Positions 1,369 to 22,428 of a stretch of DNA of 23,803 bases are shown here, piece by piece. Below the pieces are notes generated by a model, which was not told the origin of the DNA, made no database searches, and was given only the letters and a program-made list of their open reading frames with translations. The translations under genes and the position numbers were made by a program. Location of the stretch: IMG/VR virus record IMGVR_UViG_2563366943_000008, positions 1 through 23,803 of that record; one strand, 5' to 3'. This stretch comes from a virus (lineage: Duplodnaviria > Heunggongvirae > Uroviricota > Caudoviricetes). Positions within the stretch are counted from its first letter, which is position 1. The number at the start of each line of letters is the position of its first letter.

Positions 1369-1444
1369 GCCGATATAGCTCAGTTGGTAGAGCAGCGCAT
1401 TCGTAATGCGAAGGTCGTAGGTTCGACTCCTATTATCGGCACCA
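1369..1444 (+). tRNA. thrW: tRNA-Thr (anticodon CGU), 76 nt with encoded CCA
   Basis: Sequence GCCGATATAGCTCAGTTGGTAGAGCAGCGCATTCGTAATGCGAAGGTCGTAGGTTCGACTCCTATTATCGGCACCA folds as a cloverleaf: 7-bp acceptor stem GCCGATA/TATCGGC, D-arm AGCTCAGTTGGTAGAGC, anticodon loop with CGT, T-arm GGTTCGACTCC. Position immediately downstream of proA matches the known thrW locus. Confidence 0.93.
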
Positions 1445-1461
1445 TTCAAACATCTCCCCAA

Positions 1462-1608
1462 GTCTACTAAAGTCTTTCAAAACCCCTTATAATCCGCGTA
1501 TTAAAGCCCCGTTCGTCTTTTGACGTCTACTAAAGTCCCTCAAAATCTACGGTCAGATGGGGGTACTTATGGGGGTATTTGCTGTTCGGTTTAGTGGAGG
1601 TACCCCCA
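1462..1608. promoter_or_regulatory. integrase-proximal repeat cluster (candidate arm-type / operator sites)
   Basis: Two 23-bp direct repeats GTCTACTAAAGTC(T/C)(T/C)TCAAAA at 1462-1484 and 1525-1547 (3 mismatches). TGGGGGTA(C/T) occurs at 1558-1566 and 1570-1578, with an inverted copy GGTACCCCCA at 1599-1608 that overlaps the GGAGG Shine-Dalgarno (1596-1600) of the integrase gene. Confidence 0.45.
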
Positions 1609-1609
1609 A

Positions 1610-2824
1610 GTGAAACTCAATGCCCGTCAAATAGACACAGCCAAGCCAAAAGAGAAGGCTTACAAGCTGGCCGATGGTGGCGGTTTGTATCTCTTGGTAA
1701 AACCTAATGGAGGTAAATACTGGCGACTTAAATATCGTGTAGCTGGTAAAGAGAAGCTATTGGCACTAGGTGTTTATCCTGAGGTTACTCTAGCCGATGC
1801 TCGGGCAAAACGTGAAGATGCGAAAAGAGGTATCGCTGGTGGTATCGATCCGATGGAAGCGAAACGAGAGGAAAAGATTGCCCGGGAAACGCAGTTAAAC
1901 AACACCTTCAAAGATATTGCCCTTGAGTGGCACAGCAGCAAATTAAAAAAATGGTCTGCTGGTTATGCTTCAGACATCCTCGAAGCCTTCAACAAAGATG
2001 TGTTCCCTTACATTGGCAAAAAAACCATCGCCGAAATCAAACCACTTGAACTTCTGAATGTGCTGCGTCGCATCGAGGGGCGCGGTGCTACAGAAAAAGC
2101 CAAAAAAGTGAGGCAACGGTGCGGGGAAGTTTTCCGCTATGCAATAGTCACTGGTCGCGCAGAGTATAACCCTGCACCAGACCTTACTAGCGCGATGCAA
2201 GGCCATGAATCTAATCATTACCCTTTCCTTACAGCCAAAGAATTACCTGATTTTTTCAAGGCATTGTCCAGTTACTCAGGAAGCGCATTGGTTGTTATGG
2301 CGGCTCGTCTACTGATTATCACCGGCTTGCGGACTGGCGAACTACGTGGCGCATTATGGGATGAAATTGATTTCAACAAGGCTATCTGGGAGATACCCGC
2401 TTCACGTATGAAAATGCGGCGGCCTCATATTGTGCCATTGTCTGAGCAGGCTCTTTCGCTTATTGGGAAGATTAGAGAAATAACAGGCAATTACCCTCTT
2501 ATGTTTCCCGGGCGCAATGATCCAAGGAAAACAATGAGCGAGGCCAGCATAAACCAAGTGTTTAAGCGCATTGGCTACGCTGGACGTGTAACTGGTCATG
2601 GGTTCCGGCACACTATGAGTACGATTTTGCATGAGCAGGGCTATAACACTGCGTGGATAGAAACGCAGCTCGCTCACGTTGATAAGAACTCAATTCGTGG
2701 CACATACAACCATGCGCAATATCTGGATGGAAGGCGGGAGATGCTTCAATGGTATGCCGACTATATGGATTCTCTCGAGCATGGCGGAAATGTGGTGCAT
2801 ATGGTGTTTGAAAAACACGCATGA
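1610..2824 (+). CDS. int: tyrosine integrase, P4/IntA-type (site-specific recombinase), 404 aa
   Basis: GTG start at 1610 with GGAGG 10 nt upstream. N-terminal region typical of P4-family integrases (KLADGGGLYLLVKPNGGKYWRLKYR), C-terminal catalytic domain with HGFRHT and HxxR/Y context. Position directly 3' of a tRNA gene is the classic island arrangement. Confidence 0.9.
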   Translation: MKLNARQIDTAKPKEKAYKLADGGGLYLLVKPNGGKYWRLKYRVAGKEKLLALGVYPEVTLADARAKREDAKRGIAGGIDPMEAKREEKIARETQLNNTFKDIALEWHSSKLKKWSAGYASDILEAFNKDVFPYIGKKTIAEIKPLELLNVLRRIEGRGATEKAKKVRQRCGEVFRYAIVTGRAEYNPAPDLTSAMQGHESNHYPFLTAKELPDFFKALSSYSGSALVVMAARLLIITGLRTGELRGALWDEIDFNKAIWEIPASRMKMRRPHIVPLSEQALSLIGKIREITGNYPLMFPGRNDPRKTMSEASINQVFKRIGYAGRVTGHGFRHTMSTILHEQGYNTAWIETQLAHVDKNSIRGTYNHAQYLDGRREMLQWYADYMDSLEHGGNVVHMVFEKHA

Positions 2825-2919
2825 AACAACTGGACAAGTATACAGAGGTTTACTAAAGTATAAGGGAGTAGATTGATAAAAACTCACAGAGGATTGCTAT
2901 TTAACAGTTAGCCATGGAG

Positions 2920-3220
2920 AAGGGCAATCGCTCTTTTAACAACGAAGATGGAATCTTCTACGCAGCTGAAAAGCTGGATGCTCTTTAACAGCCTTTGGTG
3001 CTTTTCTGATGCAGGAAAGAATAGGGATACATGCACCTTTACAATGCATGTAATGATTCATCCATGAGGCTGCGGAGCGCTGACAAAGCGCAATTGCTCT
3101 TTAACATTGATGTGGGCGGGATGGTTCGTCCCGCAGTGACCGATAGATTTCTATCGGGAAACATACAATGATTCAAATATGAATCTACGGCGCTGACAAA
3201 GCGCAATTGCTCTCTTGCCT
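2920..3220. repeat. intergenic repeat/palindrome cluster
   Basis: Perfect 24-bp direct repeat GCGCTGACAAAGCGCAATTGCTCT at 3077-3100 and 3190-3213. Related CTCTTTAACA motifs at about 2929-2948 and 2980-2993. Perfect palindrome CGATAGATTTCTATCG at 3141-3156. Small hairpin GCGGGA-N7-TCCCGC at about 3115-3135. Confidence 0.6.
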
Positions 3221-3542
3221 GCCCACCATGCCCTGAAAAAGGGCGTTCTTTAAAACTACTGGATGTCACGCCTAATAGCGTGATCCTGCCGAAATGCAGG
3301 GTAGCTCTACCCTTGTGGAGCAAACAAACCAAAACAATCTGACTATCTTTTATAAAAGACCGCAATATGTTTTTCATATTGTGGTCTTTGGCGTATTCGA
3401 CATTTGACGCAAATAAAACTCTCGCCATTCGTTGCAGGAGGGGGTTATTGCGTCATTAGTACAGGATATTAATAAATGGCTAATTACAATTCATTAATTC
3501 GTCTCTCTGAAGTTCAAAGGCGAACTGGGTAATGACTCCAAC

Positions 3543-4046
3543 TTATTGATAGTGTTTTATGTTCAGATAATGCCCGATGACTTTGTCATGCAGCTCCACC
3601 GATTTTGAGAACGACAGCGACTTCCGTCCCAGCCGTGCCAGGTGCTGCCTCAGATTCAGGTTATGCCGCTCAATTCGCTGCGTATATCGCTTGCTGATTA
3701 CGTGCAGCTTTCCCTTCAGGCGGGATTCATACAGCGGCCAGCCATCCGTCATCCATATCACCACGTCAAAGGGTGACAGCAGGCTCATAAGACGCCCCAG
3801 CGTCGCCATAGTGCGTTCACCGAATACGTGCGCAACAACCGTCTTCCGGAGCCTGTCATACGCGTAAAACAGCCAGCGCTGGCGCGATTTAGCCCCGACA
3901 TAGCCCCACTGTTCGTCCATTTCCGCGCAGACGATGACGTCACTGCCCGGCTGTATGCGCGAGGTTACCGACTGCGGCCTGAGTTTTTTAAGTGACGTAA
4001 AATCGTGTTGAGGCCAACGCCCATAATGCGGGCTGTTGCCCGGCAT
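3543..4046 (-). CDS. insB: IS1 InsB reading frame (expressed as the InsAB' transposase by -1 frameshift)
   Basis: 167-aa ORF overlapping the 3' end of insA in the -1 frame; sequence matches IS1 InsB. Confidence 0.85.
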
Positions 4047-4240
4047 CCAACGCCATTCATGGCCATATCAATGATTTTCTGGTGCGTACCGGGTTGAGAA
4101 GCGGTGTAAGTGAACTGCAGTTGCCATGTTTTACGGCAGTGAGAGCAGAGATAGCGCTGATGTCCGGCGGTGCTTTTGCCGTTACGCACCACCCCGTCAG
4201 TAGCTGAACAGGAGGGACAGCTGATAGAAACAGAAGCCAC
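3965..4240 (-). CDS. insA: IS1 InsA (transposition repressor / N-terminal part of transposase)
   Basis: 91-aa [43 protein letters not shown], a zinc-finger plus HTH protein matching IS1 InsA. Confidence 0.9.
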
Positions 4241-4304
4241 TGGAGCACCTCAAAAACACCATCATACACTAAATCAGTAAGTTGGCAGCATCACCGGGTG
4301 ATTA

Positions 4305-6410
4305 ATGGCTAAAGCATGGAAAGATGTTATCGCCTCTCCACAGTATCAGGCGTTAGCACCAGAACAAAAAGCGCAGGCTCAGGAGCAATACTTCAATGAA
4401 GTCGTGGCCCCGCAAGCCGGAGAAAGTGTAGCGCAGGCTAAGCAGGCTTTTTATGCTGCCTATCCACTACCATCAACGAATGAAATAGACCGATCCCAAT
4501 CAGCAACTCAAAATATTCAACATACATCATCTGATAATTCTCTTGCGTCAGGGTATGCAAAGTTAGCTACTCAGCAAAGAGAGGGGCTTGAGCGTTCAGC
4601 AGAACAGGGAGCCAGTCTTGGGGCTGCGATGCGCGATGCTATAACAGGCGAAAGCCGAATGACTCCAGAGATGGAGAGACTGCAAAATGTCGACCTTGCC
4701 CCAGAGTTAACCTCACTCAGCATGGGTGCTCTAAAAGCTCGATGGTCTCAACTTTTCGGCTCTGACGCATCTCAGGAAAAGATTCTTCAGAGCATGGGAG
4801 CGAAATTAAGGCAGGATGAGAAGGGTAACACTATCGTTTCCCTGCCATCCGGTGATTATGCTCTGAACAAGCCGGGTTTATCGCCGCAAGACGTGGCATC
4901 GTTTCTGGCTAATGCGCTGGCGTTTACACCAGCGGGCAGGGCTGGAACGGTGCTTGGTGCCATAGGAAAATCAGCAGCTACAGATTTAGCACTACAGGGA
5001 GCCACCAGCCTTGCTGGTGGAGAAGATATTGATCCGTTACAAACGGTAATTTCTGCTGGCATTGGTGGTATTGGTAAGGGGCTGGAAAATACAGCGAGTG
5101 CGGTTTCGAGGGCTGTTCGTGGTGATATGTCGCCTGAAGCAAAGGCTGCTGTCAACTTTGCATCGGAAAGAAATCTGCCGTTAATGACCAGTGACATGCT
5201 GAAAGATAAAACCTTTATGCAGAGTCAGGCTCAGACATTAGGCGAAAGAGTTCCTTTTTTTGGAACCGGTAAGAATCGGCTGAATCAACAACAAGCACGA
5301 GAAAATTTAGTCAGAACATTTAGCGATGGTCTGGGTGGCATTTCTGATAAACAGCTTTATGAATCTGCGACTAAAGGGCAACAAAAATTCATTGAGGCAG
5401 CAGGAAAGCGATATAACCGCATAATTGACGCTATGGGGGATACCCCTGTCGATCTCTCAAACACGGTAAAAGCTATCGACAATCAGATTGCCGTGTTAAG
5501 CCGCCCGGGCAAATCTCAGGATAGAGCCGCGGTAAAAGTCTTGCAGCAATTTAAAGACGATATCACCAGCGGACCAAATGACCTGCGTCTGGCGAGGGAA
5601 AACAGAACCGATCTTCGAAAGCGATTTATGGCGTCATCTGACACTGTTGATAAAGATACGCTCCAGAAAGCCAGCGATATTATCTACAAGGCATATACGG
5701 CGGATATGAAAAAAGCCGTAGCCAAAAATCTTGGAGCAGACGAAGCCATTAATATGGCAAGGGTTGATCGGTCATGGTCTAAATTCAATGACATGATGGG
5801 AAGAACGCGCGTTCAAAAGGCAATAGCCAGCGGTAAGGCCACGCCTGAGGATGTAACAAAACTCGTTTTTAGCCAAAGCCCATCAGAACGTTCTCAGCTT
5901 TACAGGCTTCTGGATGACAATGGTAGGCAAAACGCACGAGCAGCCATAGTTCAGAATGCTGTAGATAAGGCGACTGATCCGTCTGGAAATATCAGTGTTG
6001 AGAAGTTTATTAATGCGTTACACCGGAACAGGAAGCAATCAGCAACTTTCTTTAAAGGCGTACATGGAAAGGAACTGGACGGCGTTATTAAATACCTCAA
6101 CGATACAAGACACGCGGCAAAAGCGAACGTTCAAAACTTAAATGGTCAGCAGCTTTATGGATTGTTAGTTGGTGGTGGCATCATAAACGCAGCAGTATTA
6201 GCGGGGATGCTAAAAACGGCTGCGTTTGTTGTTCCTGCTGCTGGTGCCGTAGGCGGAGCAGCGAAGGCATACGAAAGCCCTGTTATACGAAATGCCTTGT
6301 TACGTCTGGCAAATACGCCAAAAGGTAGCACAGCATATGACAGAGCGATCAGTACGGTCACACAATCGCTCACCAGAGTCGCACAGGCATCACAAAAAGA
6401 AGCTCAATAA
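4305..6410 (+). CDS. large Ala/Gln/Lys-rich helical protein with C-terminal Gly/Ala-rich hydrophobic segment (function unknown; tape-measure-like or pore-forming-toxin-like)
   Basis: 701-aa ORF with consistent coding character. First ATG lies 9 bp after the IS1 end, preceded by an in-frame TGA and no Shine-Dalgarno, so the native N-terminus and promoter may be missing. About 37-residue hydrophobic stretch LYGLLVGGGIINAAVLAGMLKTAAFVVPAAGAVGGAA near the C-terminus. Confidence 0.5.
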   Translation: MAKAWKDVIASPQYQALAPEQKAQAQEQYFNEVVAPQAGESVAQAKQAFYAAYPLPSTNEIDRSQSATQNIQHTSSDNSLASGYAKLATQQREGLERSAEQGASLGAAMRDAITGESRMTPEMERLQNVDLAPELTSLSMGALKARWSQLFGSDASQEKILQSMGAKLRQDEKGNTIVSLPSGDYALNKPGLSPQDVASFLANALAFTPAGRAGTVLGAIGKSAATDLALQGATSLAGGEDIDPLQTVISAGIGGIGKGLENTASAVSRAVRGDMSPEAKAAVNFASERNLPLMTSDMLKDKTFMQSQAQTLGERVPFFGTGKNRLNQQQARENLVRTFSDGLGGISDKQLYESATKGQQKFIEAAGKRYNRIIDAMGDTPVDLSNTVKAIDNQIAVLSRPGKSQDRAAVKVLQQFKDDITSGPNDLRLARENRTDLRKRFMASSDTVDKDTLQKASDIIYKAYTADMKKAVAKNLGADEAINMARVDRSWSKFNDMMGRTRVQKAIASGKATPEDVTKLVFSQSPSERSQLYRLLDDNGRQNARAAIVQNAVDKATDPSGNISVEKFINALHRNRKQSATFFKGVHGKELDGVIKYLNDTRHAAKANVQNLNGQQLYGLLVGGGIINAAVLAGMLKTAAFVVPAAGAVGGAAKAYESPVIRNALLRLANTPKGSTAYDRAISTVTQSLTRVAQASQKEAQ

Positions 6411-6429
6411 CTGGTTAGCCATGGATGGC

Positions 6430-7044
6430 TTAGATATCTCTGCTGTCTCCATTAGGAAATAAAAGATAATATGGATTTGCCTTTCTTGCTCTCCTTGCTT
6501 CACCCGGATACCTGTTAGTCAGTAGCTTGCATAATGAGCAGAGAACAACACTCAAGAAAATTCCGAATGAGAAGATCAATATCTCACCAAAAATCAATGG
6601 CGATATTAAATTTTCAGGATTTAATGATAAGTCAATGTTAAAAACATATTGAGCAATACCAGTAAGTATCAATAATATAATCCCTATGGAATACATTGCT
6701 GTTTCCCAAACATCAGACAGTCTATTTTTGAATTGTTCGCTGGAGTAGTAGTTTGTTATAAAGTCAGAAAAATCACTCTCATATGCATCATCTTTAGGTG
6801 ATGTTAGAAATCCTCTGTCTCTCCATACCTTCTCCCAATTAGTCGATTCTTTTTTTAAGGAAAAATAAATATGTATTCCCAAAAGGATAGCCAAAATTGG
6901 TGTTAGCTCTAAAAAATAGAATGTTATGGAATAAATAATACTGCCATGTTCAAACTCATCTGGGACTATCATGTATGCACAAAAATAAATTGAAAAGTAC
7001 ACCATGCAGATAGTTAGCAATTCTTTAGTATCTTTTCTGCTCAC
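6430..7044 (-). CDS. integral membrane protein, 4 predicted TM helices (candidate immunity / abortive-infection membrane protein)
   Basis: 204-aa ORF with GTG start at 7044 and AAGGGGG Shine-Dalgarno upstream. Four long hydrophobic helices with a charged central loop. Very AT-rich compared with the adjacent 701-aa gene. Convergent with that gene, with a 19-bp gap containing a palindrome. Confidence 0.6.
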   Translation of the reverse strand: MSRKDTKELLTICMVYFSIYFCAYMIVPDEFEHGSIIYSITFYFLELTPILAILLGIHIYFSLKKESTNWEKVWRDRGFLTSPKDDAYESDFSDFITNYYSSEQFKNRLSDVWETAMYSIGIILLILTGIAQYVFNIDLSLNPENLISPLIFGEILIFSFGIFLSVVLCSLCKLLTNRYPGEARRARKANPYYLLFPNGDSRDI

Positions 7045-7498
7045 ACCAACCCCCTTTAGCGTTGTTTAGAATGGCAATCATCATATATCCAAGACATGGC
7101 ATTTGGTACATAGCTTGGGTCGGGATTTCAAGTCCGCTCCCAGTTGATGGGGCCGTTACAGTACGCGCATATCCGCTTTATGTGAAACAGGAAGATTTTT
7201 CTGATATCACTGCCACAGCAAAACACCAATTTCGTGACCAGTACGCGCGCGAGGGGTATCAGTTGCAAAATTTTTTGCAACTGCGTCCGACCAGTACGCA
7301 CACGATGGCGGGGGATACCATAAAACTGTTCTCTACATGAGACAGAGTGGTGGTGATGTGTTGATTATCGGCGTATATGCGCACAGGACGCGCTATGACG
7401 ATGTTTTATGCGGGTACACCAATCACATGTATCTGGTGTGATAAATCGCGTTACATGACCTCTCATGTTGTGCTGGTGGTTATCACGACTTTCTGAAT

Positions 7499-7542
7499 CT
7501 GGCCTTTGCCTGATATTTTGCGACAAGTACGCGCGCGTAGCA
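7499..7542. repeat. dispersed repeat with alternating CG core (copy A)
   Basis: CTGGCCTTTGCCTGATATTTTGCGACAAGTACGCGCGCGTAGCA. Partial relatives at 7231-7253 (TTTCGTGACCAGTACGCGCGCGAG) and 7283-7303 (CCGACCAGTACGCACACGA). Confidence 0.6.
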
Positions 7543-7565
7543 TCGACAGCATACACATTGGATAT

Positions 7566-7787
7566 TCATTTTGTGACCAATGCGATAAGTAGCGGGATAA
7601 GAATTGATAAAATCAACAGGCCGATGATCCACTTTTGATTTTCACTGGCCTTATCTCTATTTTCATCAATCTTATCAATAATTCGACGCTCCAATCCGTG
7701 CATATCACCGCGAATGGCAATCATCTCATTGCGAACATCAGGGAAGTGGTTGGCTTGATGTTCAATGTGTGGCGTTCTGCCTTTCAT
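7566..7787 (-). CDS. small protein with N-terminal coiled-coil and single C-terminal TM helix (XhlA/holin-like architecture)
   Basis: 73-aa ORF; C-terminal WIIGLLILSILIPLLIALV is a clear TM segment. Architecture resembles small prophage membrane proteins. Not verified by homology. Confidence 0.4.
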   Translation of the reverse strand: MKGRTPHIEHQANHFPDVRNEMIAIRGDMHGLERRIIDKIDENRDKASENQKWIIGLLILSILIPLLIALVTK

Positions 7788-7866
7788 ATCTGATCCTCAC
7801 CTATCGTCACTACCTGCTGGTGTATAAAGGTATTGGCCCAAGCAACTTTCCAATGGGCACTCATGT

Positions 7867-8322
7867 TTATACGCTGACCTTACAATCAATCACTGCTTTT
7901 AGCTTTTCAGCATTGCTTCCCTGACGCTTCCACGCGCTGTAAATATCTTTATCCCACGCTTTACCAGCTTTTGTTTGATAGCCTGCTTCATTGATCCGTT
8001 CAGCTATCACACGCCCATTATCAAATCCCTGTTGGATGGTATCGGCAATGATCTTTATAACTGCCGTTTCGTTATATGGTTTTGGTGGGATGTTCGGCTT
8101 TCCGGCAATAAGCGACGCAGCGGCTTTTTCCATGCGCTCCACCAGCCCAAGCATTCGTGAATCAATAGACTTTTCCGGCTGCCCCAGCTTCATGCGAATC
8201 GCATCAACAAGCCAGGAGGTTTTATCTCCTCCAGAAGCGAGAACAGACCGATTAAACTCATCCTGCAATTCAGATGGGATGCGGAACGCGACCAGATTAG
8301 ATTTGCTCATTGCAAAGACCAT
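7867..8322 (-). CDS. putative ribbon-helix-helix DNA-binding regulator with C-terminal extension
   Basis: 151-aa ORF. N-terminus NLVAFRIPSELQDEFNRSVLASGGDKTSWLVDAIRMKL fits a beta-strand / helix / helix RHH pattern. A palindromic operator-like sequence lies immediately upstream. An alternative start at 8310 (MSKSN) is possible. Confidence 0.5.
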   Translation of the reverse strand: MVFAMSKSNLVAFRIPSELQDEFNRSVLASGGDKTSWLVDAIRMKLGQPEKSIDSRMLGLVERMEKAAASLIAGKPNIPPKPYNETAVIKIIADTIQQGFDNGRVIAERINEAGYQTKAGKAWDKDIYSAWKRQGSNAEKLKAVIDCKVSV

Positions 8323-8339
8323 ATCAGTGAGTAATATCC

Positions 8340-8545
8340 ATACAGTATACCACTGTATAACACTGTTATACGCTCAAATATCAGCCAGAAAATAACGGAC
8401 CAATCACAAATCTATCGCTGTGTTGTTGGTTCAGAGCTGGGCTGTGTTGGTTCAAAATGAGTTGATGTTGGTTCAATATTTCAGAAAAAACACAATAAAA
8501 ACAACAATCTTTACAAATTGAACCAACTGAACCAACTGAACCAAC
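8340..8545. promoter_or_regulatory. divergent control region with phased iterons
   Basis: Palindrome GTATAAC-ACT-GTTATAC at 8355-8371. Three direct copies of TGTTGGTTCA at 8424, 8445 and 8467 (spacing 21-22 bp). AT-rich spacer. Three tandem inverted copies TGAACCAAC at 8519, 8528 and 8537. TATAAT at 8563-8568 just before the 8582 start. Confidence 0.55.
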
Positions 8546-8581
8546 ACCTTTTTGCTTATCTATATAATCTGAGAGGCAGAA

Positions 8582-8863
8582 ATGATAAGGGACAGGAAAG
8601 CTGAAGAGCTGGAGTCAAAAGGGCTATACCGGAGAGCTGCCGCACGATGGATGGAAGTCATGCTGTTATGCACCGAGGACGATGATCGGGAATGGATAAA
8701 GCGCCGCCGTGAAACGTGTCTGGAGAACGTGAAGCGCCCGCCCGTGAAGGTTGAGGAATTTGGCGACCTGCATAAAGCTGTTACCGAAACGCAACACCGC
8801 ATGGGGATAGCGCAACCGAACGGTAACGCCTTCCGGTTAAATGGCGGCAAGAGGCAAAGGTAG
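8582..8863 (+). CDS. small transcription-activator-like protein (PerC-family-like, tentative)
   Basis: 93-aa ORF MIRDRKAEELESKGLYRRAAARWMEVM. The N-terminal motif resembles PerC/Pch-type prophage regulators as recalled from memory. Directly downstream of the iteron region. Confidence 0.45.
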   Translation: MIRDRKAEELESKGLYRRAAARWMEVMLLCTEDDDREWIKRRRETCLENVKRPPVKVEEFGDLHKAVTETQHRMGIAQPNGNAFRLNGGKRQR

Positions 8864-8888
8864 ACCACCAGAGGGAAATCATCCTCTG

Positions 8889-8934
8889 GCTGGCGGTTTC
8901 TGGTATTTCGGGACAAGTACGCGCGCGCGTAGCA
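8889..8934. repeat. dispersed repeat with alternating CG core (copy B)
   Basis: CTGGCGGTTTCTGGTATTTCGGGACAAGTACGCGCGCGCGTAGCA. Same orientation as copy A, core GACAAGTACGCGCGCG(CG)TAGCA identical apart from one extra CG unit. Confidence 0.6.
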
Positions 8935-9160
8935 CCCAATCGGTGAGGAAATAGCGGCGACCTGAATGGTCAAAATCACAACGCAGCTATCCCCGTAAGC
9001 AGCGCTTAACGGAATAGCAGTAACCTGAATCCAGTGGGGAGGGGGTAGTCAAATCTCTACAGCCCTGACTATCCGGGACTGCCCGCCCCATCGTTTTTTT
9101 ATACCCGCGAAAAATGAAATTTAATCCGGGCGTGTTTCATTCTTCCAGAGGGTATGACGT

Positions 9161-9346
9161 ATGACACCACGCGAAATAGCCTTATTGACCATCGCCAAAC
9201 TTGAGCACGGAGGCCACCAGCTTACACAGGCAGATCAACGGGAGATAGAACGATCAGTTAATGCCGATATAGCCCGGCGCGACAGGTTCCGCGAAATGAT
9301 GCGAGCACCTGCCTACCAGTGGAAGAAGCCAGCGCCGCGCAGGTAG
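9161..9346 (+). CDS. hypothetical small protein (61 aa)
   Basis: ORF with a GAGGG Shine-Dalgarno-like sequence upstream; no recognisable motif. Confidence 0.3.
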   Translation: MTPREIALLTIAKLEHGGHQLTQADQREIERSVNADIARRDRFREMMRAPAYQWKKPAPRR

Positions 9347-9466
9347 ATATGGGATTATTCCACATGTAACTTATGCGTATTAAGCAAATTTCCTTTATTC
9401 ACCTTTACAGAATTGTGAGTACGTCAGTATCGTTATCCTTCCGATTCGCATTTATTCAGGATTTGC

Positions 9467-10009
9467 ATGTACCAGCTAAAGATAACCATCCGAGACAGCA
9501 AACCACCTATATGGCGGCGTGTGCTGGTTCCAGAGCAAATCCCCTTTAGTAAACTTCATGCCGTGATCCAGTTAGCTTTTGGCTGGAATGACGAACACCT
9601 GTATATGTTCGAGAAAGGGCGTAAAGGTGATCCAGGTAGCGAGTATCGCGTATGGGGTGAGGATGAAAGCATGGGTAACGCGGCAATCACGCCACTATGG
9701 GCGGCGCTCCAGAATGAGGGTGACAAGCTGGTTTACACGTATGACTTTGGCGACTGGTGGGATTGCGTCATTGTGCTGGAGAAGCAAACACACGATACGA
9801 GTAATCAGCCCATTAGCTGCCTGCGTGGGAAAGGCACCACCCCGGCGGAAAACTCAGGCGGCTTGCATGGTTACAATGAATTGCTATTACAGGCCAGAGA
9901 GTCTGATAATCCTGAGCAGGCCGAGATCCACAATTTCCTGATGCTGGATATTGAACGCCGGGTTTACGACCTGAGCCGCATCAACGACAGATTGCAGGCT
10001 ATTAACTGA
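9467..10009 (+). CDS. pRiA4b ORF-3-like family protein (tentative)
   Basis: 180-aa ORF containing YTYDFGDWWDCVI, which resembles the YxYDFGDxWxHxI signature I recall for the plasmid pRiA4b ORF-3-like domain. Confidence 0.45.
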   Translation: MYQLKITIRDSKPPIWRRVLVPEQIPFSKLHAVIQLAFGWNDEHLYMFEKGRKGDPGSEYRVWGEDESMGNAAITPLWAALQNEGDKLVYTYDFGDWWDCVIVLEKQTHDTSNQPISCLRGKGTTPAENSGGLHGYNELLLQARESDNPEQAEIHNFLMLDIERRVYDLSRINDRLQAIN

Positions 10010-10361
10010 CCCGCATGTATTCACCTGATATTGCGTTGTCAGCGCCGCCAGTATCGCGCATAACAGCGCACTGACCGGGTAAACCGTAGCGCACGACCGT
10101 TGCGTTAGTATCACCGCCGCGCCGTATCTGGCGCGATTCATACACTGTCACCCGCTCAAGCAGTCCACCAGCAACCATGCTTTCCAGTGTGCGCCGGGTT
10201 GATTCGAGCTGGTGACGCTTATCGAACGACACCATGCCATGAAGCAGGTAGGCCACACCCGACACATCGAACGGCGGCGCACCAATCTCACCAGTCACCC
10301 ATTCGAGGTTATCCGGTTCAAAGTAGCTAAGTATCTCTTTTTTGCGGCTGGTCATTCTCAT
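10002..10361 (-). CDS. hypothetical protein (119 aa)
   Basis: ORF convergent with and overlapping the 3' end of the 9467-10009 gene by 8 bp; AAGGA-like Shine-Dalgarno upstream of the ATG at 10361. Function unknown. Confidence 0.35.
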   Translation of the reverse strand: MRMTSRKKEILSYFEPDNLEWVTGEIGAPPFDVSGVAYLLHGMVSFDKRHQLESTRRTLESMVAGGLLERVTVYESRQIRRGGDTNATVVRYGLPGQCAVMRDTGGADNAISGEYMRVS

Positions 10362-10480
10362 GGCTGGCTGATTCCTTATTGTGGGATAGCACTATCATAC
10401 AATAAGTGGGTTAAAGGGAGAGCGTTACCGCCTGATATGCTGTATGAATAACAACCAAATTTCAGGGGCGGAAAAAGATA

Positions 10481-10501
10481 TGGGGGTACTTTTGGGGGTA
10501 T
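10481..10501. repeat. second copy of the TGGGGGTAC-N3-TGGGGGTAT motif pair
   Basis: TGGGGGTACTTTTGGGGGTAT at 10481-10501 versus TGGGGGTACTTATGGGGGTAT at 1558-1578: same orientation, one mismatch. Confidence 0.7.
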
Positions 10502-10562
10502 CTATAAAAAATGAACAATAAAAAAGGCAACAAAAACAAAGCTTATCGCCTATGTGTATTGT

Positions 10563-10582
10563 TCCTATTATCGCACAATCAA
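10563..10582. other. degenerate direct repeat of the tRNA-Thr 3' end (candidate attR core of module 1)
   Basis: TCCTATTATCG-CAC-AATCAA aligns with tRNA 3' end TCCTATTATCGGCACCATTCAA (1428-1449): 11/11 identical, then gapped similarity. Lies about 60 bp beyond the second TGGGGGTA pair. Confidence 0.45.
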
Positions 10583-11182
10583 GAAAATCAATAACTTAGC
10601 TTAACTTCTCTAAGAAATTGTATCTTCTGTTATCACTTACAAACGCCTATACGTTGTTATGGGCTTTGGTAGTGTAACACGTATGGGCGAGTAGTTCCCA
10701 GGCTCAACCTCGTAACAAGTTCCTTTGAAGCTGGAAGACGTGCCACCGTCTCTAAACCTTCTACCAAAACTCTTAGCAAGATGTTCCACACCTGGCGCGG
10801 TGTCCAATGATGCTACACGTCGTGAGACGTTGCAGAGGATAAACAGGCTAAATGATGGGAAGAGTTTTAAGTGCAATAGTGGATCAAAGCCCACCTCTTC
10901 AAAACCTAACTTGATCGGGAAAGAATCAAGCTCTAGCACGGTTTCGTCCACCGGAGTACAACGGGTGCCTGATAAGAGAAGAACTGCTAAGACTTCATAG
11001 CTTTTGTGAAAAAGCCCTTTTAGTGGATACGCCTACGGCGCTTATTTTTTGGGGTAGCCCATCAAAGGCGCTTTATGGCTCCTATTGTCTTGAAAATGTA
11101 TCTTTACTTGTATTGTGTTTTATGCGTAGTCTCCCTGTGTAGTATGTAACTTGTTAATTTTCATATGAATACAGAGGCACAC

Positions 11183-11341
11183 GATGAAAAACATTGCAGC
11201 TATCAAACGTAATAACCGCAAGATTCACGCTCGTAAGTTCCTGTCTACGCCAGAAGGAAAAGCCTGGCTAGAGCGTAAACAGAGAGAGAACGAAGAAAGA
11301 AAACTCCTTAATGAGTTGAAATGGCTTAGAGAGGATTTCTG
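11183..11341 (+). CDS. hypothetical small basic protein (52 aa)
   Basis: ATG at 11183 with GAGG 6-9 nt upstream; translation MKNIAAIKRNNRKIHARKFLSTPEGKAWLERKQRENEERKLLNELKWLREDF. Below the ORF-track size cutoff, so found by eye. Coding status uncertain. Confidence 0.25.
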
Positions 11342-12153
11342 AAAATCTCCAGAACGCAACAGGACGCATTCTAACGCTATTTTCATTGCTTGGTATAGGG
11401 ATGTATAGGTGATGTGTGTTTAATGCGTCTGTGCGCTTGTTTTGTGCCTTATTTTGCATTTTCATAATGCAGAAGAGAACACGGAAAACCTTAAAATTAA
11501 TTATTGGGGTATTTAAGGGTATTTTCAGGTGATTTAAGGGTATTAAACTTGATTTAATTGATTAAAATATAAACAGATAGTTGTGTATCTTATTGATTTA
11601 TAAGGTTATTTTTAAATAAAGGTAAATAAAAAATAAATAGCCATAAATAGCTATAAATACATCTAAATACCTATATCCCTTCCCTTATGGCTAGATTGCG
11701 AGAGGTGCTTAACGCGATTTTCAGCGCCCCCCGATCTGGAAAATCCAGAATCCCCAAATATCAGCAAGGAATTTTCTTGCGTAATCAACATCGTTTTTAC
11801 CTATTAAATCATTACACAGAAAGCCTTTCTGTAATGTCTCTCACTAAACTTTCACTAAACACGAGAATGATCGGTTTTATGTCGGATCAGATGCTAGAAA
11901 CAGCACCACGTCTCACAAGGACTGTAAGCGATGAAACCAGTGTTTATGCGGGTGCAGGTCAAAATATAGGCCAAAATCAATTTAACATAATAAACGTAAT
12001 ATGCACTAAGGAACACATAGAACGCCTTGAGTTGATGTATCAGGGGAAAAGTGATGGATTTTTTACGTAGGAGCACGAGAGGGCTTCTGTTGACTTTTGT
12101 ATGCTATGAAACATAATTAAAGGTTTTTTTGTTTTTATTGTGTGATGTAGTGG

Positions 12154-13127
12154 ATTACACAGGGGAATAGATTAAATGGTGTTCTGTTTATACAGGTTTA
12201 TTTGTTAGATCAACAATTTGGCATTTCTAAACAGATGTTTGAACGTTGCCAAATGTCTTGACAACACAAGAAAAGGGCTTGCTATGCCACGCATTACACG
12301 AAATAAGGCTGTAAAAACAAAATAAATTTTAAAATTTGCACAAACGAGAAAACTCGTTAAGAAACAAGCAGAACAATTTTTAGCCAACAATTTCTGATGG
12401 TGCTCTGTAGGCCGCACTACACAAGGATTTGCGAAAGTGATGTAAAAGTGAAGAAAGTAAGAATTGCACTTTTAAGCTACTTTTCATTGAATTTTTAGTA
12501 TGGAATTACACAGGAATAAGTTAGGGATATTCTATGATTTACACAGGGAATATAGGGGATTATGGCACACACATAGAAAGGCATTACACAGAGTGAGTGC
12601 TATGTGATGATTGGTAGTAACGGTAGGTCATAGTGAGCTAGGGGGTAGGTCACTGTGAACTACAATAAGACTATTAATAAAACTATATTAGATTATTAAT
12701 TAGATCATAATAATAATATTCTTTATATCTATATATATGATCTTTTGCCTTCCGGCGTTAGCTTCACTCTCTGGCAAGCAGCCTTACTCCGCTACCTTTC
12801 GGGCTTCGTGGCTGGCCCGTTCCGCTCACACCGAAAGCAAAGCGTTACTTTCTTCGTGTAACTTCGTTGGCGGTAACGCCCACGAAGAAATCTATTGCGC
12901 TGTGCGCAGTAAGAGTAATCACCTAACCAATCATACTGATTGCTTATGTGTTAACTCTCTCTAACTCTTAATTACCCTCCTACATTTAATAACTCTGTTA
13001 TTCTCTGTAGTTGTGTAATTACTCGAAGAGAGAGCGGCTAAAGCTCAATTACACTCTGCTTTCCTCGTGTAATTTCACTAAGCCTCAATACAATTTCACT
13101 TCCTACATTCTGTAGTCGTGTAATTGT
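12154..13127. repeat. iteron field flanking an AT-rich tract and GC-rich core (origin-like region)
   Basis: Direct copies of (A/T)TTACACAGG(G/A)AATA at 12154, 12505, 12538 and 12583, plus variants at 12293 and 12417. Inverted copies CGTGTAA(T/C) at 12855, 13012, 13066 and 13117. 17-bp repeat TCTGTAGT(T/C)GTGTAATT at 13004 and 13110. GGTAGGTCA repeats at about 12625 and 12649. Extremely AT-rich tract at about 12660-12745. Confidence 0.5.
12745..12915. ncRNA. candidate structured RNA or single-strand initiation element (strand undetermined)
   Basis: GC-rich patch inside AT-rich DNA. Hairpin CTTCGTTGGCG-GTAA-CGCCCACGAAG (12862-12887; 10 of 11 positions pair, GNRA-type tetraloop). Hairpin CGGGC-N10-GCCCG (12800-12819). 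Long-range complementarity CTTACTCCGC (12783-12792) with GCGCAGTAAG (12904-12913). The overlapping 75-aa ORF has a non-protein-like sequence. Confidence 0.25.
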
Positions 13128-13761
13128 TTTCGGTGGAAAAGCCAGAGGCGACACCGAAAGAGAATTCTGATCTTATTAATCTTATCTATCTTAGTTAATC
13201 TTCTTACTTATCTTACTTACTTTATCTACTTTATTATTAATAATAGCTTTATAAGCTCTCTGTGTAGCTCTCTGACGCAAGAAACAGCATTCAGGAAGGG
13301 AATCACCTTAGAAAAGGTGTTCTTTGCGTCATAATGTGTTTTATGAAGGATTCAGAGGTGTTTCATAACAGGAATGTATAGAGAATACTTTAGGTAATTA
13401 AAAATAAGGGGTCTAAATGCTTCTCTAACAGCATTAAGCAGGGTAGGGAATGGAAACGCATTGCCTACATATAATAAACTCACTACAGGGCTTTACAGGG
13501 CGTTTTATAAAGCGACTCTCTGTTTTATATCTACAATCACCTTTTCATATACCTAACAAATACAAAATAAGCCCCTTAAATAAGCCTCTGGCGAGCTAAA
13601 CAGACATTACATAAGAGAATGTATTGCTTTTATCAAAACTTCGTTAGAACGCGTTTTAGAGCGTTTTAGCGGATAATGAAGAATAGCACTACACAGAAGA
13701 GCACGAATTGCTAAGACAAATTATAACATGCTGAAAAAGATCGATTTTTTCGAAAAGGGTA

Positions 13762-13790
13762 TTGACAAATGTTTCTTTATATGTAATAAT
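13762..13790 (+). promoter_or_regulatory. sigma70-like promoter upstream of the rightward small-gene array
   Basis: TTGACA at 13762-13767, 16-17 bp spacer, TAATAA(T) at 13784-13790. The -35 is embedded in GGGTATTGACA, sharing the GGGTATT motif seen elsewhere in the element. Confidence 0.4.
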
Positions 13791-13903
13791 AGGTATTAGA
13801 GGGACAGAAAAACATTCTTCTCTAAATAATCAAAATCAATGCACTTTGAAGCCGTCAGGCTTGCAAGGTGTTTTATTTCTTTTAACTGAATAAGGAGTTT
13901 TTT

Positions 13904-14092
13904 ATGAAATGGTTTACACCGGAGCACGTCGTAAAGGCATTTAAAAAAGGTGAGCTTACACGCCACCAAATAGTAATGAATCGTAATATGGCAAGGAGTC
14001 GAGGTTATCCAGAGCGAGCAGCTTGCTTCAATGAAGCACTCAAGATTATTGATGAACTAAGAAAAAATGAAAAAGAATCTGAAACAGAGTAA
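13904..14092 (+). CDS. hypothetical small protein (62 aa)
   Basis: ATG preceded by TAAGGAG Shine-Dalgarno at optimal spacing; first gene downstream of the promoter. Confidence 0.5.
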   Translation: MKWFTPEHVVKAFKKGELTRHQIVMNRNMARSRGYPERAACFNEALKIIDELRKNEKESETE

Positions 14093-14111
14093 AGAAGAGA
14101 AGGAGAAAACT

Positions 14112-14282
14112 ATGAGCGAAGCTACAGAAAAGAAAAGACAACCACGCACTTGCTTTCATATTCCTGATGAAGTATTTCAGGTGTTGTTTAAAGAAGCCAG
14201 AAGTAAACGTATCACTGTTACAGATTACATTCTTGATATGTTGAAAAGAGAGGCTGAAACACTCTCAAATAAAAGCAAGTGA
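14112..14282 (+). CDS. putative ribbon-helix-helix (CopG/Arc-like) DNA-binding protein, 56 aa
   Basis: ATG at 14112 with GAAGGAG upstream. RTCFHIPDEVFQVLFKEARSKRITVTDYILDMLK fits strand-helix-helix. The ORF track starts earlier (14067) at an upstream in-frame ATG lacking a Shine-Dalgarno. Confidence 0.5.
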   Translation: MSEATEKKRQPRTCFHIPDEVFQVLFKEARSKRITVTDYILDMLKREAETLSNKSK

Positions 14283-14335
14283 TTTTTATCACCATAGTAG
14301 CGCCATAGAGCGTGATTACATCAAGGAGATTTTTA

Positions 14336-15028
14336 ATGATTAACCAACTAACTTTTACAAAACACTATGACACGTTTGATAATATATCAAAGATTTATTC
14401 TGATAAATTCCCTCAAGGAAAAGATTTAGATCTATTACATATTGTGCTTTATTTTCGATTCCTTAGTTATCAGGAAAACAACCTTAATTGTTATGAAAGT
14501 CACGAAACATTAGCTAAGATTTTTAAGTCTTCACCATCAACAATTAAACGTAAGATAAACGATCTTAAAGAGATGGGATTATTAGAAACATCCCCACATC
14601 CTGATCCGTATATTTCATCTTTGATTTACAATGCTCTCCCTCTCACAGATGCACATATTACTCCCCCAGGAGAATCATCACTCTCTGATCTTTCTGAGGC
14701 AGAAGAAGCACAGGAACAACCTAAAGGCCATAAACAGCCTTCTTTTGATGTTCTTGATGATGATTGGGATACGCCTTTACCCTGGGAGACGGAAGAAACA
14801 CCTGTTTCATCAAGTGAAAAGGTAGCTAATGATAATGAGGAGGATGTGTTAGAGAATTTTGCCTCTCTTATCATCCAGGAGAAACACAAAAGAACAGGAG
14901 GGGCATCATTTATAGAATTTGCAAATTCACTAGCTTGTAGATACGGGCTAAAACGACCAAATGGTATTGAGGCATATTTTTCTAAGCATTACCCAAATGT
15001 ATACGAAGACTTTGATATTCCCTTTTAA
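14336..15028 (+). CDS. putative winged-helix DNA-binding protein with acidic C-terminal tail (replication-initiator / replisome-organiser-like)
   Basis: ATG at 14336 with AAGGAG 9 nt upstream (ORF track starts at 14312). N-terminal segment ETLAKIFKSSPSTIKRKINDLKEMGLLE is a typical HTH. C-terminal third is strongly acidic (DDDWDTPLPWETEETP...EEDVLENF). Confidence 0.45.
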   Translation: MINQLTFTKHYDTFDNISKIYSDKFPQGKDLDLLHIVLYFRFLSYQENNLNCYESHETLAKIFKSSPSTIKRKINDLKEMGLLETSPHPDPYISSLIYNALPLTDAHITPPGESSLSDLSEAEEAQEQPKGHKQPSFDVLDDDWDTPLPWETEETPVSSSEKVANDNEEDVLENFASLIIQEKHKRTGGASFIEFANSLACRYGLKRPNGIEAYFSKHYPNVYEDFDIPF

Positions 15029-15044
15029 AAAGTAAGGAGGACTA

Positions 15045-15323
15045 TTGATACAGTATTTAATAAAAAGCAAAGTAGACAGAATTCAGTGTAACGACACAGG
15101 AAAACGCATCTACGAAACGCTTGCTTACCTCTATAAAGGAAAGCCAACACCGCTAAAATATAGCGATGTGTTACATCGAGCAGGTTGCTCTGAGTCAGGT
15201 TTAAAATTCTGGCTGAAACAGCTATCAAATTTCGGTGTTATTGAAATGAAAGAGCTGTCTTTCTCTACATTTAATCTCAAAAGACTAGATAAAGAAATAG
15301 AATTCATCTATTCCACTCTCTAA
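15045..15323 (+). CDS. small HTH-type DNA-binding protein (92 aa)
   Basis: TTG start with very strong TAAGGAGG Shine-Dalgarno 6 nt upstream. Contains a probable HTH (YSDVLHRAGCSESGLKFWLKQL). Confidence 0.45.
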   Translation: MIQYLIKSKVDRIQCNDTGKRIYETLAYLYKGKPTPLKYSDVLHRAGCSESGLKFWLKQLSNFGVIEMKELSFSTFNLKRLDKEIEFIYSTL

Positions 15324-15455
15324 AATCTCTCTATGTAATTAAAATATAAAAGGAAAACATTATTATGATAGTAGCTATGTATTGGTTATTGTTCTTTCTC
15401 ACGTTAGAAGCATATTTCGGGGTGTTTTCCTTTAAAAGAAAAGGAAAAGTAAATT

Positions 15456-15866
15456 ATGGCAAAAAGAAAAAACAACGTTGTTAAGAAAATCGGTGATTCA
15501 GCTTCTCTTCTAAGTAAACCTAAATCTATTCTAAAACGTAAAGACTTTAAAGAGCTAGTTACGCTCACCAAGCATAATAGCGCCCCTGGCGAATGGAAAA
15601 CAGAGATCATAGAACATTCTCCCTCTGTGCCTTGTGGAGATGAATATATCGCCTTACAAGAAATCTTATCTTCAACACCTGGCGTGTTCTGGAAACCTAA
15701 AAAAAGAAAAGAGTATATCGTTGATAGCTCTGATTTACGCAAATACCAGATTTTAGGATTTGAAGATTATAATCACTACGTTGGTTATCTCGCCACAAAT
15801 GGCCTAAATAATTTAGTTCCTGAATTCCAGATTTTAGATAATGCAGATCACTATGGAGACTTTTAA
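15456..15866 (+). CDS. hypothetical basic protein (136 aa)
   Basis: ATG with AAGGAAAAG upstream. Lys/Arg-rich N-terminus. Stop codon is 1 nt before the start of the next gene. Confidence 0.5.
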   Translation: MAKRKNNVVKKIGDSASLLSKPKSILKRKDFKELVTLTKHNSAPGEWKTEIIEHSPSVPCGDEYIALQEILSSTPGVFWKPKKRKEYIVDSSDLRKYQILGFEDYNHYVGYLATNGLNNLVPEFQILDNADHYGDF

Positions 15867-15867
15867 T

Positions 15868-16206
15868 ATGAACAAAAACACGTATGACACAATTTACTCA
15901 CTAATTAATTATTATGAGGATGATTACCTCCTGCCTTTAAACCGCGCTGAACTTGAAGCATACAAAGAAAACACGCCAGCGGCACTAAATGAGGCGTTTA
16001 AACACTGGGATTTAGCTGTGAATGCCTTTGAGCACCTCTCTAAGCGTGTAGAGATGCTCTGTAAGCGCGAAAACGCATACCTGACAGCCGATCAGGTATG
16101 GGAATTATCAAACTGGATAGAAGATATTGAATCTGATGTTCGCTATGTGGGAGATGGACTTGTTGAACTAGCGCAACGCTTAGGCGCTACTATCACAGAA
16201 GAATAA
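15868..16206 (+). CDS. hypothetical acidic protein (112 aa from ATG 15868; in-frame alternative starts at 15841 and 15853)
   Basis: GGAG 9 nt upstream of ATG 15868; translationally coupled to the preceding gene. Confidence 0.45.
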   Translation: MNKNTYDTIYSLINYYEDDYLLPLNRAELEAYKENTPAALNEAFKHWDLAVNAFEHLSKRVEMLCKRENAYLTADQVWELSNWIEDIESDVRYVGDGLVELAQRLGATITEE

Positions 16207-16235
16207 AAAAAGCAACAAAAAAGTTGTAAAATATC

Positions 16236-16264
16236 TTGACATTCCATCTATTGTATGTTAATAT
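16236..16264 (+). promoter_or_regulatory. near-consensus sigma70 promoter
   Basis: TTGACA (16236-16241), 17-bp spacer, TAATAT (16259-16264). Confidence 0.5.
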
Positions 16265-16270
16265 AATTAT

Positions 16271-16491: not shown

Positions 16492-16550
16492 CGTTATACA
16501 ACTTAAAAGTTGTATTTCTTACTTTAAACAAGGTAACAAGGTTTATATAA

Positions 16551-17122: not shown

Positions 17123-17140
17123 TAAAAGGAATAATAATAA

Positions 17141-18169: not shown

Positions 18170-18187
18170 TATTTTAACGTGTAATAG

Positions 18188-18224: not shown

Positions 18225-18255
18225 TTATTTTTAAATTTTGAGAGGTGATTAAAAT

Positions 18256-22387: not shown

Positions 22388-22428
22388 CCGTAAATGCCTC
22401 TAAAACGCTCTGTAACGATGTAATTATA

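Follow-up and report, generated by a model that had tools for sequence, protein, structure and literature searches.

Introduction

Mimicry of a helper phage's packaging signal is already known as a kind of satellite strategy: P4, SaPIbov5 and EfCIV583 mimic the packaging signals of their helpers, and the satellite PLE mimics 14 bp of the pac site of phage ICP1, a stretch that is required for transduction (bioRxiv 10.1101/2024.04.22.590561). In P22-like phages, the pac sites lie inside the gene for the small terminase, terS (PMC8022706; PMC9611059). EcCIMP1, a phage-inducible chromosomal island (PICI) of Escherichia coli MP1 located at thrW, is a satellite associated with a phage of this group (Pick, Stadel and Raivio 2025, PMC11773190). 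Induction of the P22-like phage Kapi1 leads to excision and transduction of EcCIMP1 by a packaging mechanism that is not known, and the authors found neither terminase nor capsid-remodelling genes in the island (PMC11773190); repeats and a cos or packaging site go unmentioned in their paper. Here we examine a related island in a stretch of 23,803 nt (hereafter the window; positions 1 to 23,803 of the Caudoviricetes record IMGVR_UViG_2563366943_000008), in which a short element is dispersed as direct repeats, and we present evidence that this element very probably consists of fragments of terS genes of the type carried by phage Sf6.

Repeat family in the window

A sequence-only reading of the window had pointed to a family of repeats in one orientation, each with an alternating (CG)n core. 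When the 23.8-kb window was searched on both strands with the 16-mer GACMAGTACGCGCGCG, allowing at most 2 mismatches, four matches were found, all on the + strand (7236-7251, 7289-7304, 7522-7537 and 8912-8927), compared with a mean of 0.01 in shuffled windows and no instance of four in 100 shuffles. An independent repeat search recovered the same repeat families, and both the positions and the shared orientation reported earlier hold.

The four copies, all on the + strand, differ in length and preservation. The pattern search and a terS profile match both identify c1 (7228..7255; CAATTTCGTGACCAGTACGCGCGCGAGG) as a putative terS-derived fragment, and c2 (7288..7308; CGACCAGTACGCACACGATGG) is a degenerate one recovered by the pattern search at 2 mismatches. 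The long copy c3 (7499..7546; CTGGCCTTTGCCTGATATTTTGCGACAAGTACGCGCGCGTAGCATCGA, with core TTTTGCGACAAGTACGCG) was found by the repeat and pattern searches and by the terS profile. The longest terS-homologous fragment, c4, has the core TTTCGGGACAAGTACGCG and occupies 8879..8934 (8889-8934 in the sequence-only reading), 16-71 nt 3′ of the stop codon of a PerC-family gene and ~150 nt 5′ of a cosN site. Whereas c3 and c4 have ~45-50 nt in common, c1 and c2 are shorter relatives; the long copies contain CG-rich perfect palindromes of 12 and 14 nt (TACGCGCGCGTA in c3 and TACGCGCGCGCGTA in c4). A possible weak fifth copy, c0 (ACAGTACGCGCATA, ~7160-7173, + strand), was seen by eye only and is uncertain, and no match to it was reported in the terS profile search of the window. 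In islands that do not otherwise differ, the (CG)n run of c4 (8912-8934) has either 4 or 5 units, giving matches of 54 or 56 nt, a variation that would be consistent with replication slippage. Islands at a second chromosomal site, near dinD/yicG, contain a more divergent copy, c4′ (CAATTTCACGAGCAATACGCGCGCGCAGG), ~180-215 bp inside their right end, where the left flank is variable and the right flank conserved.

Probable terS origin of the repeats

Viral and metagenome contigs were screened with a degenerate pattern, TTTYRNGASMARTACGCGCGCG, that accommodates every type of copy. Besides the island copies, the motif was found in more than 100 unrelated contigs, where it lies in frame inside open reading frames (ORFs) that read ...SLRxICxxxxMPxxSTVFRWLxxxxxFR(D/E)(Q/K)YARAREAQADxxADEIxxIADD... 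These ORFs are Sf6-type small terminases (TerS) according to Pfam PF20901 (E 5e-41 to 8e-44), PHROG 1482 and PDB 3HEF/4DYC, named gene 1 protein (E 3e-33), and the repeat core corresponds to the most conserved stretch of Sf6-type terS, the codons F-R-D-K/Q-Y-A-R-A. Read in the TerS frame, and out of context, c1 gives ..TATAKHQFRDQYAREG.., compared with ..WLAKHEDFRDKYAKATE.. in Sf6 gp1; its translation ..AKHQFRDQYAREG.. can likewise be set alongside ..LAKHEDFRDKYAKATE.. of Sf6 gp1. In the same frame c4 reads ..FRDKYARA followed by a stop, with ..LWLA.. preceding it out of frame, with frame-breaking indels and with homology reaching back to the ..RWLA.. codons of terS, and c4′ reads QFHEQYARAGQQA followed by a stop. 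Because the copies can be read in this way, the CG run is just the codon string TAC GCG CGC GCG (Tyr-Ala-Arg-Ala), so that the Z-DNA-prone core noted in the sequence-only reading is incidental.

As a guard against circularity, 80 Sf6-type terS loci were gathered by a peptide pattern, and a 120-nt nucleotide profile was built from 58 distinct segments. The top four matches of this profile in the window are the four copies, on the + strand and in one register: c4 (8879-8929; E 5.8e-6, 20.2 bits, profile positions 32-84), c1 (7228-7251; E 3.4e-4, 14.6 bits, profile positions 59-82), c3 (7515-7537; E 8.6e-3, 10.0 bits) and c2 (7288-7304; E 0.45, 4.5 bits), the last of which is not significant alone and agrees in strand and register. 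Of 40 shuffled windows, most stayed below 6 bits and none exceeded 10.3; in four further loci (~90 kb) only their own copies exceeded 7.3 bits, and ~110 kb of island and chromosomal DNA outside the window contained nothing else above that score; and in the Kapi1 genome the profile detected the terS gene only, at 107 bits. Across the whole of EcCIMP1 and the window, the profile revealed no intact Sf6-type terS, only the short copies, and no terminase is annotated there. Compared with an intact terS gene (PF20901), each copy has 17-51 nt of homology, is frame-broken, and lacks an ORF or Pfam match. A direct BLAST search of the element against phages returned nothing meaningful, a result that is uninformative because the low-complexity filter masks (CG)n.

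The same segment recurs elsewhere. All copies at at least five loci keep the same 18-25 nt, in flanks that are unrelated or frame-broken, and c4′ is identical (24/24) to the terS allele found in a genuine P22-like phage, whose genes are arranged as lysis-terS-terL-portal. In another island subfamily (L046, 11223-11244; also L093, L106 and L183), the terS core is present as TTTCGAGACAAGTACGCGCGCG within an Ash-like ORF, where it falls in the variable N-terminal portion and is read in a frame other than that of TerS; the copy in L046 and its relatives matches the terS profile with E 8e-5. We consider it highly probable that the repeats are fragments of Sf6-type terS genes.

Codon constraint in phage terS genes

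Codon use at the motif was compared with that in the rest of the same genes for 52 distinct terS alleles ranging from 38 to 70% GC (loci L340-L419). Tyr is encoded by TAC in 52/52 alleles at the motif and in 52% of cases elsewhere (Fisher p 1e-12), Asp by GAC in 33/33 versus 47% (p 5e-11), the first Ala by GCG in 45/52 versus 24% (p 7e-20), and Phe by TTT in 42/52 versus 29% (p 8e-11), all of these statistics being inflated by the relatedness of the alleles. When the set was thinned to 19 alleles with less than 60% pairwise identity, Ala63 was GCG in 17/19 (p 2e-6), the strongest of 43 conserved columns, and the adjoining Tyr62 was TAC in 19/19. The two positions after TACGCG are unconstrained, and the constraint at the level of DNA in phage terS ends at TACGCG. 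These observations argue with moderate strength that selection has acted on the DNA sequence TTT-NNN-GAC-CAR-TAC-GCG itself, which is the part kept by all island copies. Independently of the island, the excess of synonymous-site conservation at codons 58-63 (Sf6 numbering) marks a candidate DNA recognition core of Sf6-type small terminases.

Distribution of the element and the satellite that carries it

Matches to the 56-nt contexts of c3 and c4 were found in ~560 of 5426 complete E. coli genomes (~10%), at 1-8 places per genome, on chromosomes only, and at several map positions but always within one island family. This distribution, together with the lack of a significant fold, differs from that of a genome-wide repeat of the REP (repetitive extragenic palindromic) or BIME (bacterial interspersed mosaic element) type, the alternative that the sequence-only reading had itself named. 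A gapped scan for the c1...c3 pair across 185,579 species-representative genomes gave only four matches, attributable to chance, all in GC-rich taxa.

The window lies between proA/tRNA-Thr (thrW) and yagU, and its first island extends over ~9.1 kb (~1424-10577) at tRNA-Thr. This island shares with EcCIMP1 the att core, an integrase, a gp16-like gene and a PerC gene, placing it among EcCIMP1-like PICIs. Identity to EcCIMP1 is ~98% across int and across the region from PerC to attR, homology stops at 10579, and c1, c3 and c4 occupy the same relative places in EcCIMP1. Compared with EcCIMP1, the window island has lost, at window 2997-4300, a segment that starts shortly past the AlpA-like region and reaches as far as the gp16-like gene; the loss includes the primase, Ash, Icd, antirepressor and gp14/7/20-like genes, and an insertion sequence, IS1 (3543-4240), sits at the deletion junction. 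Since it lacks the primase and most of the early region, the window island is, as judged from this comparison, a deletion derivative of EcCIMP1, and this copy is probably defective and non-replicative.

Copies c0-c3 fall in a conserved non-coding block of 507 bp (7040..7546, defined by pairwise blastn), which is 96-98% identical between thrW islands and the second-site islands while the genes on both sides have been exchanged. On the left the block is bounded by the ribosome-binding site (RBS) and start codon of a SieA-like gene that lies on the - strand and varies among islands. On the right it stops where c3 ends, and variable cargo begins at 7547, with at least three different continuations among islands.

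A possible role in packaging

The best explanation for the retention of the repeats, to which we give roughly an even chance, is that they are pac-site mimics used for packaging by helpers with an Sf6-type TerS. In headful (pac) phages, the TerS recognition site is located inside the terS gene, and a terminase-less satellite would keep several copies of that stretch, with the core TTT-CGN-GAC-MAG-TAC-GCG. When a helper with an Sf6-type TerS, such as Kapi1, turns lytic, TerS/TerL would recognise the replicated satellite DNA at the copies, where headful packaging of satellite DNA would begin. Two points are inferred: the site recognised by TerS would coincide or overlap with this part of terS, and packaging would make use of the island copies. 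Because the copies are near-identical direct repeats, they also double as crossover points that shuffle or delete modules, as shown once.

Several observations are in keeping with this proposal. The synonymous constraint in phage terS genes lends indirect support to this stretch being the pac site, and all copies keep the same short piece of the gene. The window island is linked to a helper-mobilised satellite through its ~98% identity to EcCIMP1 and the shared thrW att core, and neither the window nor the whole of EcCIMP1 has a terminase of the Sf6 type of its own. Kapi1 TerS is 100% identical to Sf6 gp1 over 122 residues (tblastn), and nt 171-188 of Kapi1 terS, TTTCGCGACAAGTACGCG, are unique in the Kapi1 genome even at 3 mismatches; c4 and c3 each match this stretch at 17/18 positions and c1 at 16/18. 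EcCIMP1, 19,963 bp in length and transferred by Kapi1 (PMC11773190), is about half as long as the 39,436-bp Kapi1 genome, a ratio that suits headful packaging of dimers.

A number of points weigh against a packaging role. The 17/18 pairwise match to Kapi1 is not significant alone (E ~1.1), and the claim of homology therefore rests on the family profile. On the 3′ side of TACGCG, the island copies have CGCGCG (Arg-Ala) and Kapi1 has AAGGCA (Lys-Ala), so that the source of the copies would be alleles of the YARA type, not Kapi1 itself. Transduction of EcCIMP1 by Kapi1 is rare and Kapi1 titres are not reduced (PMC11773190); any mimicry would thus be inefficient for Kapi1. The sequence specificity of Sf6 TerS is weak in vitro (PMC9611059). 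Leavitt et al. (2013) reportedly placed the Sf6 pac site in the portion of gene 1 coding for the DNA-binding domain, and the motif is situated at the C-terminal edge of that domain. In addition, a cos site suited to a different type of terminase is present in the island and could be its main packaging route. The codon statistics are inflated as described above, and in the thinned set a single column survives multiple-test correction. Allele matching, including the 24/24 match of c4′, was partly favoured by the pattern-based selection of alleles. Finally, the role of the copies in packaging is proposed from their sequence.

A more tentative version of the packaging proposal, which we think possible but doubtful, is that the island carries a "key ring" of pac decoys, with cores taken from different alleles of P22-like helpers, in addition to a cos site for phages with HNH/Terminase_4 packaging. 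There is a weak hint that c3 and c4 might be of the Sf6/Kapi1-like allele and c1 of the FRDQ type, and that c4′ might be the allele of another P22-like phage. The stronger statement that each copy represents a distinct natural allele was set aside as partly an artefact of the pattern-selected alleles, and serves as a weak hint only. If such a set of decoys exists, headful and cos helpers alike could package one element, and the sequence that Sf6-type TerS recognises on DNA, which has long been elusive, would be TTT-CGN-GAC-CAR-TAC-GCG. The copies might then also titrate TerS when another phage superinfects, thereby adding to the superinfection immunity conferred by EcCIMP1.

Alternative explanations

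The copies may instead be inert scars, that is, decayed terS remnants spread by duplication or unequal crossover, whose sole effect would be to act as linkers for RecA-type recombination; we regard this as conceivable but on the unlikely side. Every copy is frame-broken and untranslated, c4 keeps additional terS-like flank with indels in the manner of a pseudogene, and the 96-100% identity among islands could reflect recent spread. Recombination at the element has also left traces. A synthetic query joining the left part of c3 to the right part of c4 gave one full-length match among ~552 island-bearing genomes (NZ_OZ547150.1, locus L136), in which a crossover inside the 35-bp element joins modules of two island types, the left part being L002-like and the cos module EcCIMP1-like, and everything from the 73-aa gene to PerC is missing; mosaic breakpoints coincide with the right edge of c3 and with the left edge of c4′. 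However, recombination at the repeats is rare (1 of ~552 genomes), and random decay should leave different parts of terS, whereas at least five loci keep the same 18-25 nt. The kept stretch coincides with that under synonymous constraint in phages, paralogous copies have an intact core between flanks too divergent to align, and the profile search found no other terS-derived sequence in the island. The suggestions of a recombination site and of a protein-binding site, made in the sequence-only reading, are both viable in modified form. The segment 7543-8888, which that reading proposed to check for presence or absence as a unit, is lost precisely in NZ_OZ547150.1, although in only that one of the ~552 island-bearing genomes; with this single loss and no associated recombinase or recombinase-type arm structure, the idea that the element bounds a small mobile unit falls away.

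The location of c0-c3 in a sharply bounded 507-bp block that includes the RBS and start codon of the SieA-like gene, and that is kept despite allele swaps, would also fit regulator-binding sites controlling this leftward gene and its neighbours, with the similarity to terS ancestral and irrelevant; the block contains no consensus sigma-70 promoter, as might be expected of an activator-dependent one. We nevertheless consider this improbable, given that there is no conserved candidate binder, the adjacent regulators vary (a 151-aa ORF, an AlpA-like helix-turn-helix (HTH) protein, ImmA/IrrE), L136 retains copies without PerC and the 151-aa ORF, c4 and c4′ lie downstream of genes and not at promoters, and the identity of the site with the terS stretch is left unexplained. 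Very improbable, in our estimate, is that the copies are site-specific recombination sites (att, attC or dif-like) delimiting a cassette from the 73-aa gene to PerC. Direct repeats do flank this block, and the one precise loss has a hybrid junction, but that is one of ~552 genomes, there is no recombinase in or beside the block, and the element is asymmetric, without inverted recombinase-binding arms around a spacer; moreover, c1, c2 and c5 flank no cassettes, and breakpoints internal to the block (7900, 8665) represent ordinary mosaicism. A function at the level of RNA, as a terminator, a structured RNA, or a PerC 3′ untranslated region (c4) antisense to leftward c0-c3 transcripts, seems to us the least credible. 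Although c3 and c4 are each ~25-50 nt from the stop codon of outward-reading genes and a 7-bp hairpin just precedes c4, no shared or significant fold was detected on either strand (z +1.8 to -2.0), there are no terminator-like sites and no Rfam match, and c3 is not downstream of a minus-strand gene in other islands.

Two further candidates were rejected. An att or arm-type integrase site is excluded by the fact that the thrW att core and the arm repeats are other sequences located elsewhere; in addition, c4′ is ~180-215 bp inside the right end at the yicG site and is missing from the terminal part kept in L136. Sites of cosB type for the adjacent cos were discarded, as phage homology starts only at 9030 and the TerS concerned there is of the unrelated Terminase_4 type; the terminal segment of yicG-type islands showed no cos homology.

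Surroundings of the copies

The island is bounded by attL at the 3′ end of tRNA-Thr (thrW) (1424..1444, + strand), with the core TCCTATTATC as published for EcCIMP1, and by attR (10563..10577, + strand), a degenerate repeat of the tRNA 3′ end, TCCTATTATCG-CAC. The same repeat search revealed arm-type repeats, ATGGGGGTACTTTTGGGGGTAT, at 10480-10501, mirrored at 1557-1578. A gene for a P22 gp16-like DNA-ejection protein (4305..6410, + strand; PHROG 770/29117 and RefSeq annotation) precedes the SieA-like (superinfection exclusion) gene (6430..7044, - strand), a variable allele recognized by a weak match to PHROG 7745 (E 4.4e-4) and by allele replacement. Comparison of the latter with L002 (8193-8588), L125 (4632-5330) and L059 reveals at least three to four unrelated alleles that have only the RBS and start codon in common, and the position gives the impression of a site where superinfection-exclusion genes are swapped. 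Superinfection immunity is reported to be increased by EcCIMP1.

Within the 507-bp block, a near-perfect AT-rich palindrome with GTTGCAAAATTTTTTGCAAC lies between c1 and c2 (7261..7283, found by inspection and island comparison) and is kept in all islands examined with small spacer variation. A Chi site, GCTGGTGG, is located at 7472-7479, ~20 nt 5′ of c3, in the orientation that acts on RecBCD entering from the right (cos side). A 92-aa ORF spanning c1 and c2 was rejected as a gene, as it has only close, frameshifted "homologs" of variable length and ends and is conserved as DNA only. The possibility of a DUF4222 gene remnant was also dismissed: the sole DUF4222 fusion (P0023) is a deletion derivative, and Pfam covers only its N-terminal part.

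As described in the sequence-only reading, c3 and c4 bracket a block of genes, which the ORF map and Pfam resolve into a 73-aa membrane-protein ORF (7566-7787, - strand), a 151-aa ORF (7867-8322, - strand), an iteron cluster and a PerC-family gene. The 151-aa ORF has an Arc/CopG-like N-terminus, and because it has no Pfam match its earlier label as a ribbon-helix-helix (RHH) regulator is unconfirmed. The iterons, TGTTGGTTCA and GAACCAAC, lie between this ORF and the divergent PerC gene (~8400-8560, by repeat search and island comparison), and a paralogue 80-83% identical to them (window 8445-8552) adjoins the primase gene in intact islands (L125 11296-11403; L003 3312-3432). With two iteron sets lying apart, the layout is similar to that of ori and crr in satellite P4. 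The PerC-family gene (8582..8863, + strand; Pfam PF06069, E 3.7e-30) encodes WP_000617443.1, which is the EcCIMP1_025 protein.

The cos region (9034..9134, + strand), with cosN at ~9080-9089 (TGCCCGCCCC), was recognized by homology to phage genome ends and cos sites, with 82-95% identity to either the genome termini or the annotated cos of SfV, SfII, SfIV, ST64B and phiP27. It lies ~100-150 bp 3′ of c4, belongs to the HNH and Terminase_4 packaging type that is unrelated to Sf6 TerS, and is present in EcCIMP1 (L125). This similarity suggests that cos phages may be additional or even main helpers.

Two observations concern neighbouring elements. A second element lies in tandem at the same tRNA site (10578-23803), with HTH, major capsid and baseplate genes, an IS2 insertion, its own integrase (22469-23803, - strand) and arm-like repeats (11500-11541); it may represent either the remnant of a prophage or a PICI-like element that forms capsids. 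In NZ_OZ547150.1 (L136, 13644-14468), the yicG/dinD-site island has a dinD-like gene of its own, 77% identical in nucleotide sequence, beside the chromosomal dinD, which hints that the integrase of such islands may target the 5′ region of dinD and restore the gene.

Comparison with known systems

If the packaging proposal is correct, what would be new is a mimic taken from the terS coding sequence of the helper type, present as 4-5 dispersed direct copies beside a cos site of an unrelated type. EcCIMP1-like islands are common, the repeat being found in ~10% of complete E. coli genomes, and its identity as a terS fragment offers a concrete and cheaply testable explanation for the packaging of EcCIMP1, namely pac mimicry. 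It would also supply an 18-nt candidate recognition sequence for Sf6-type small terminases, whose DNA specificity has resisted study in vitro, and one satellite may combine pac-type and cos-type signals, thereby widening its range of helpers. If the copies are inert, they would still show how a conserved micro-segment of coding sequence turns into a linker for recombination, by which accessory and immunity modules are shuffled from one satellite to another.

A close relative is EcCIMP1 itself, with which the window island has in common the thrW site, the att core TCCTATTATC, ~98% identity over int and from PerC to attR, and the places of c1, c3 and c4. Unlike EcCIMP1 (19,963 bp), the window island is 9.1 kb long, lacks the segment from AlpA to the ejection gene, and has different cargo between c3 and the iterons. 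The short conserved stretches also resemble the "linker" sequences of mosaic lambdoid phages, which join unrelated modules; those linkers are usually single and at gene boundaries, whereas the island element has an identifiable terS origin and occurs 4-5 times per element.

In P22 (gene 3) and, reportedly, in Sf6 (gene 1), the terS gene itself contains the site to which its product binds, and the island copies correspond to about nt 145-195 of Sf6/Kapi1 terS. The phage has one copy in an intact terS, whereas the island has only fragments, out of frame and in non-coding DNA. Like P4 (with helper P2), SaPIbov5 and EfCIV583, the island would make passive use of the packaging signal of its helper, and it also has a cos site at 9034-9134; those satellites, however, carry single cos sites for cos terminases, whereas the island repeats are several and related to the headful (pac) TerS type. 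A further comparison is with PLE of Vibrio cholerae (helper ICP1), likewise a terminase-less satellite with a short match to part of the pac region of its helper, which in the island is a candidate one. In PLE the match amounts to 14 identical bp within 89 bp, and in the island to a core that agrees at 17/18 nt inside a stretch of 25-50 nt. The single copy of PLE lies between genes, in a pac-like region, and PLE has three packaging proteins; unlike PLE, the island has no known packaging proteins and carries 4-5 dispersed direct copies that would derive from terS coding sequence.

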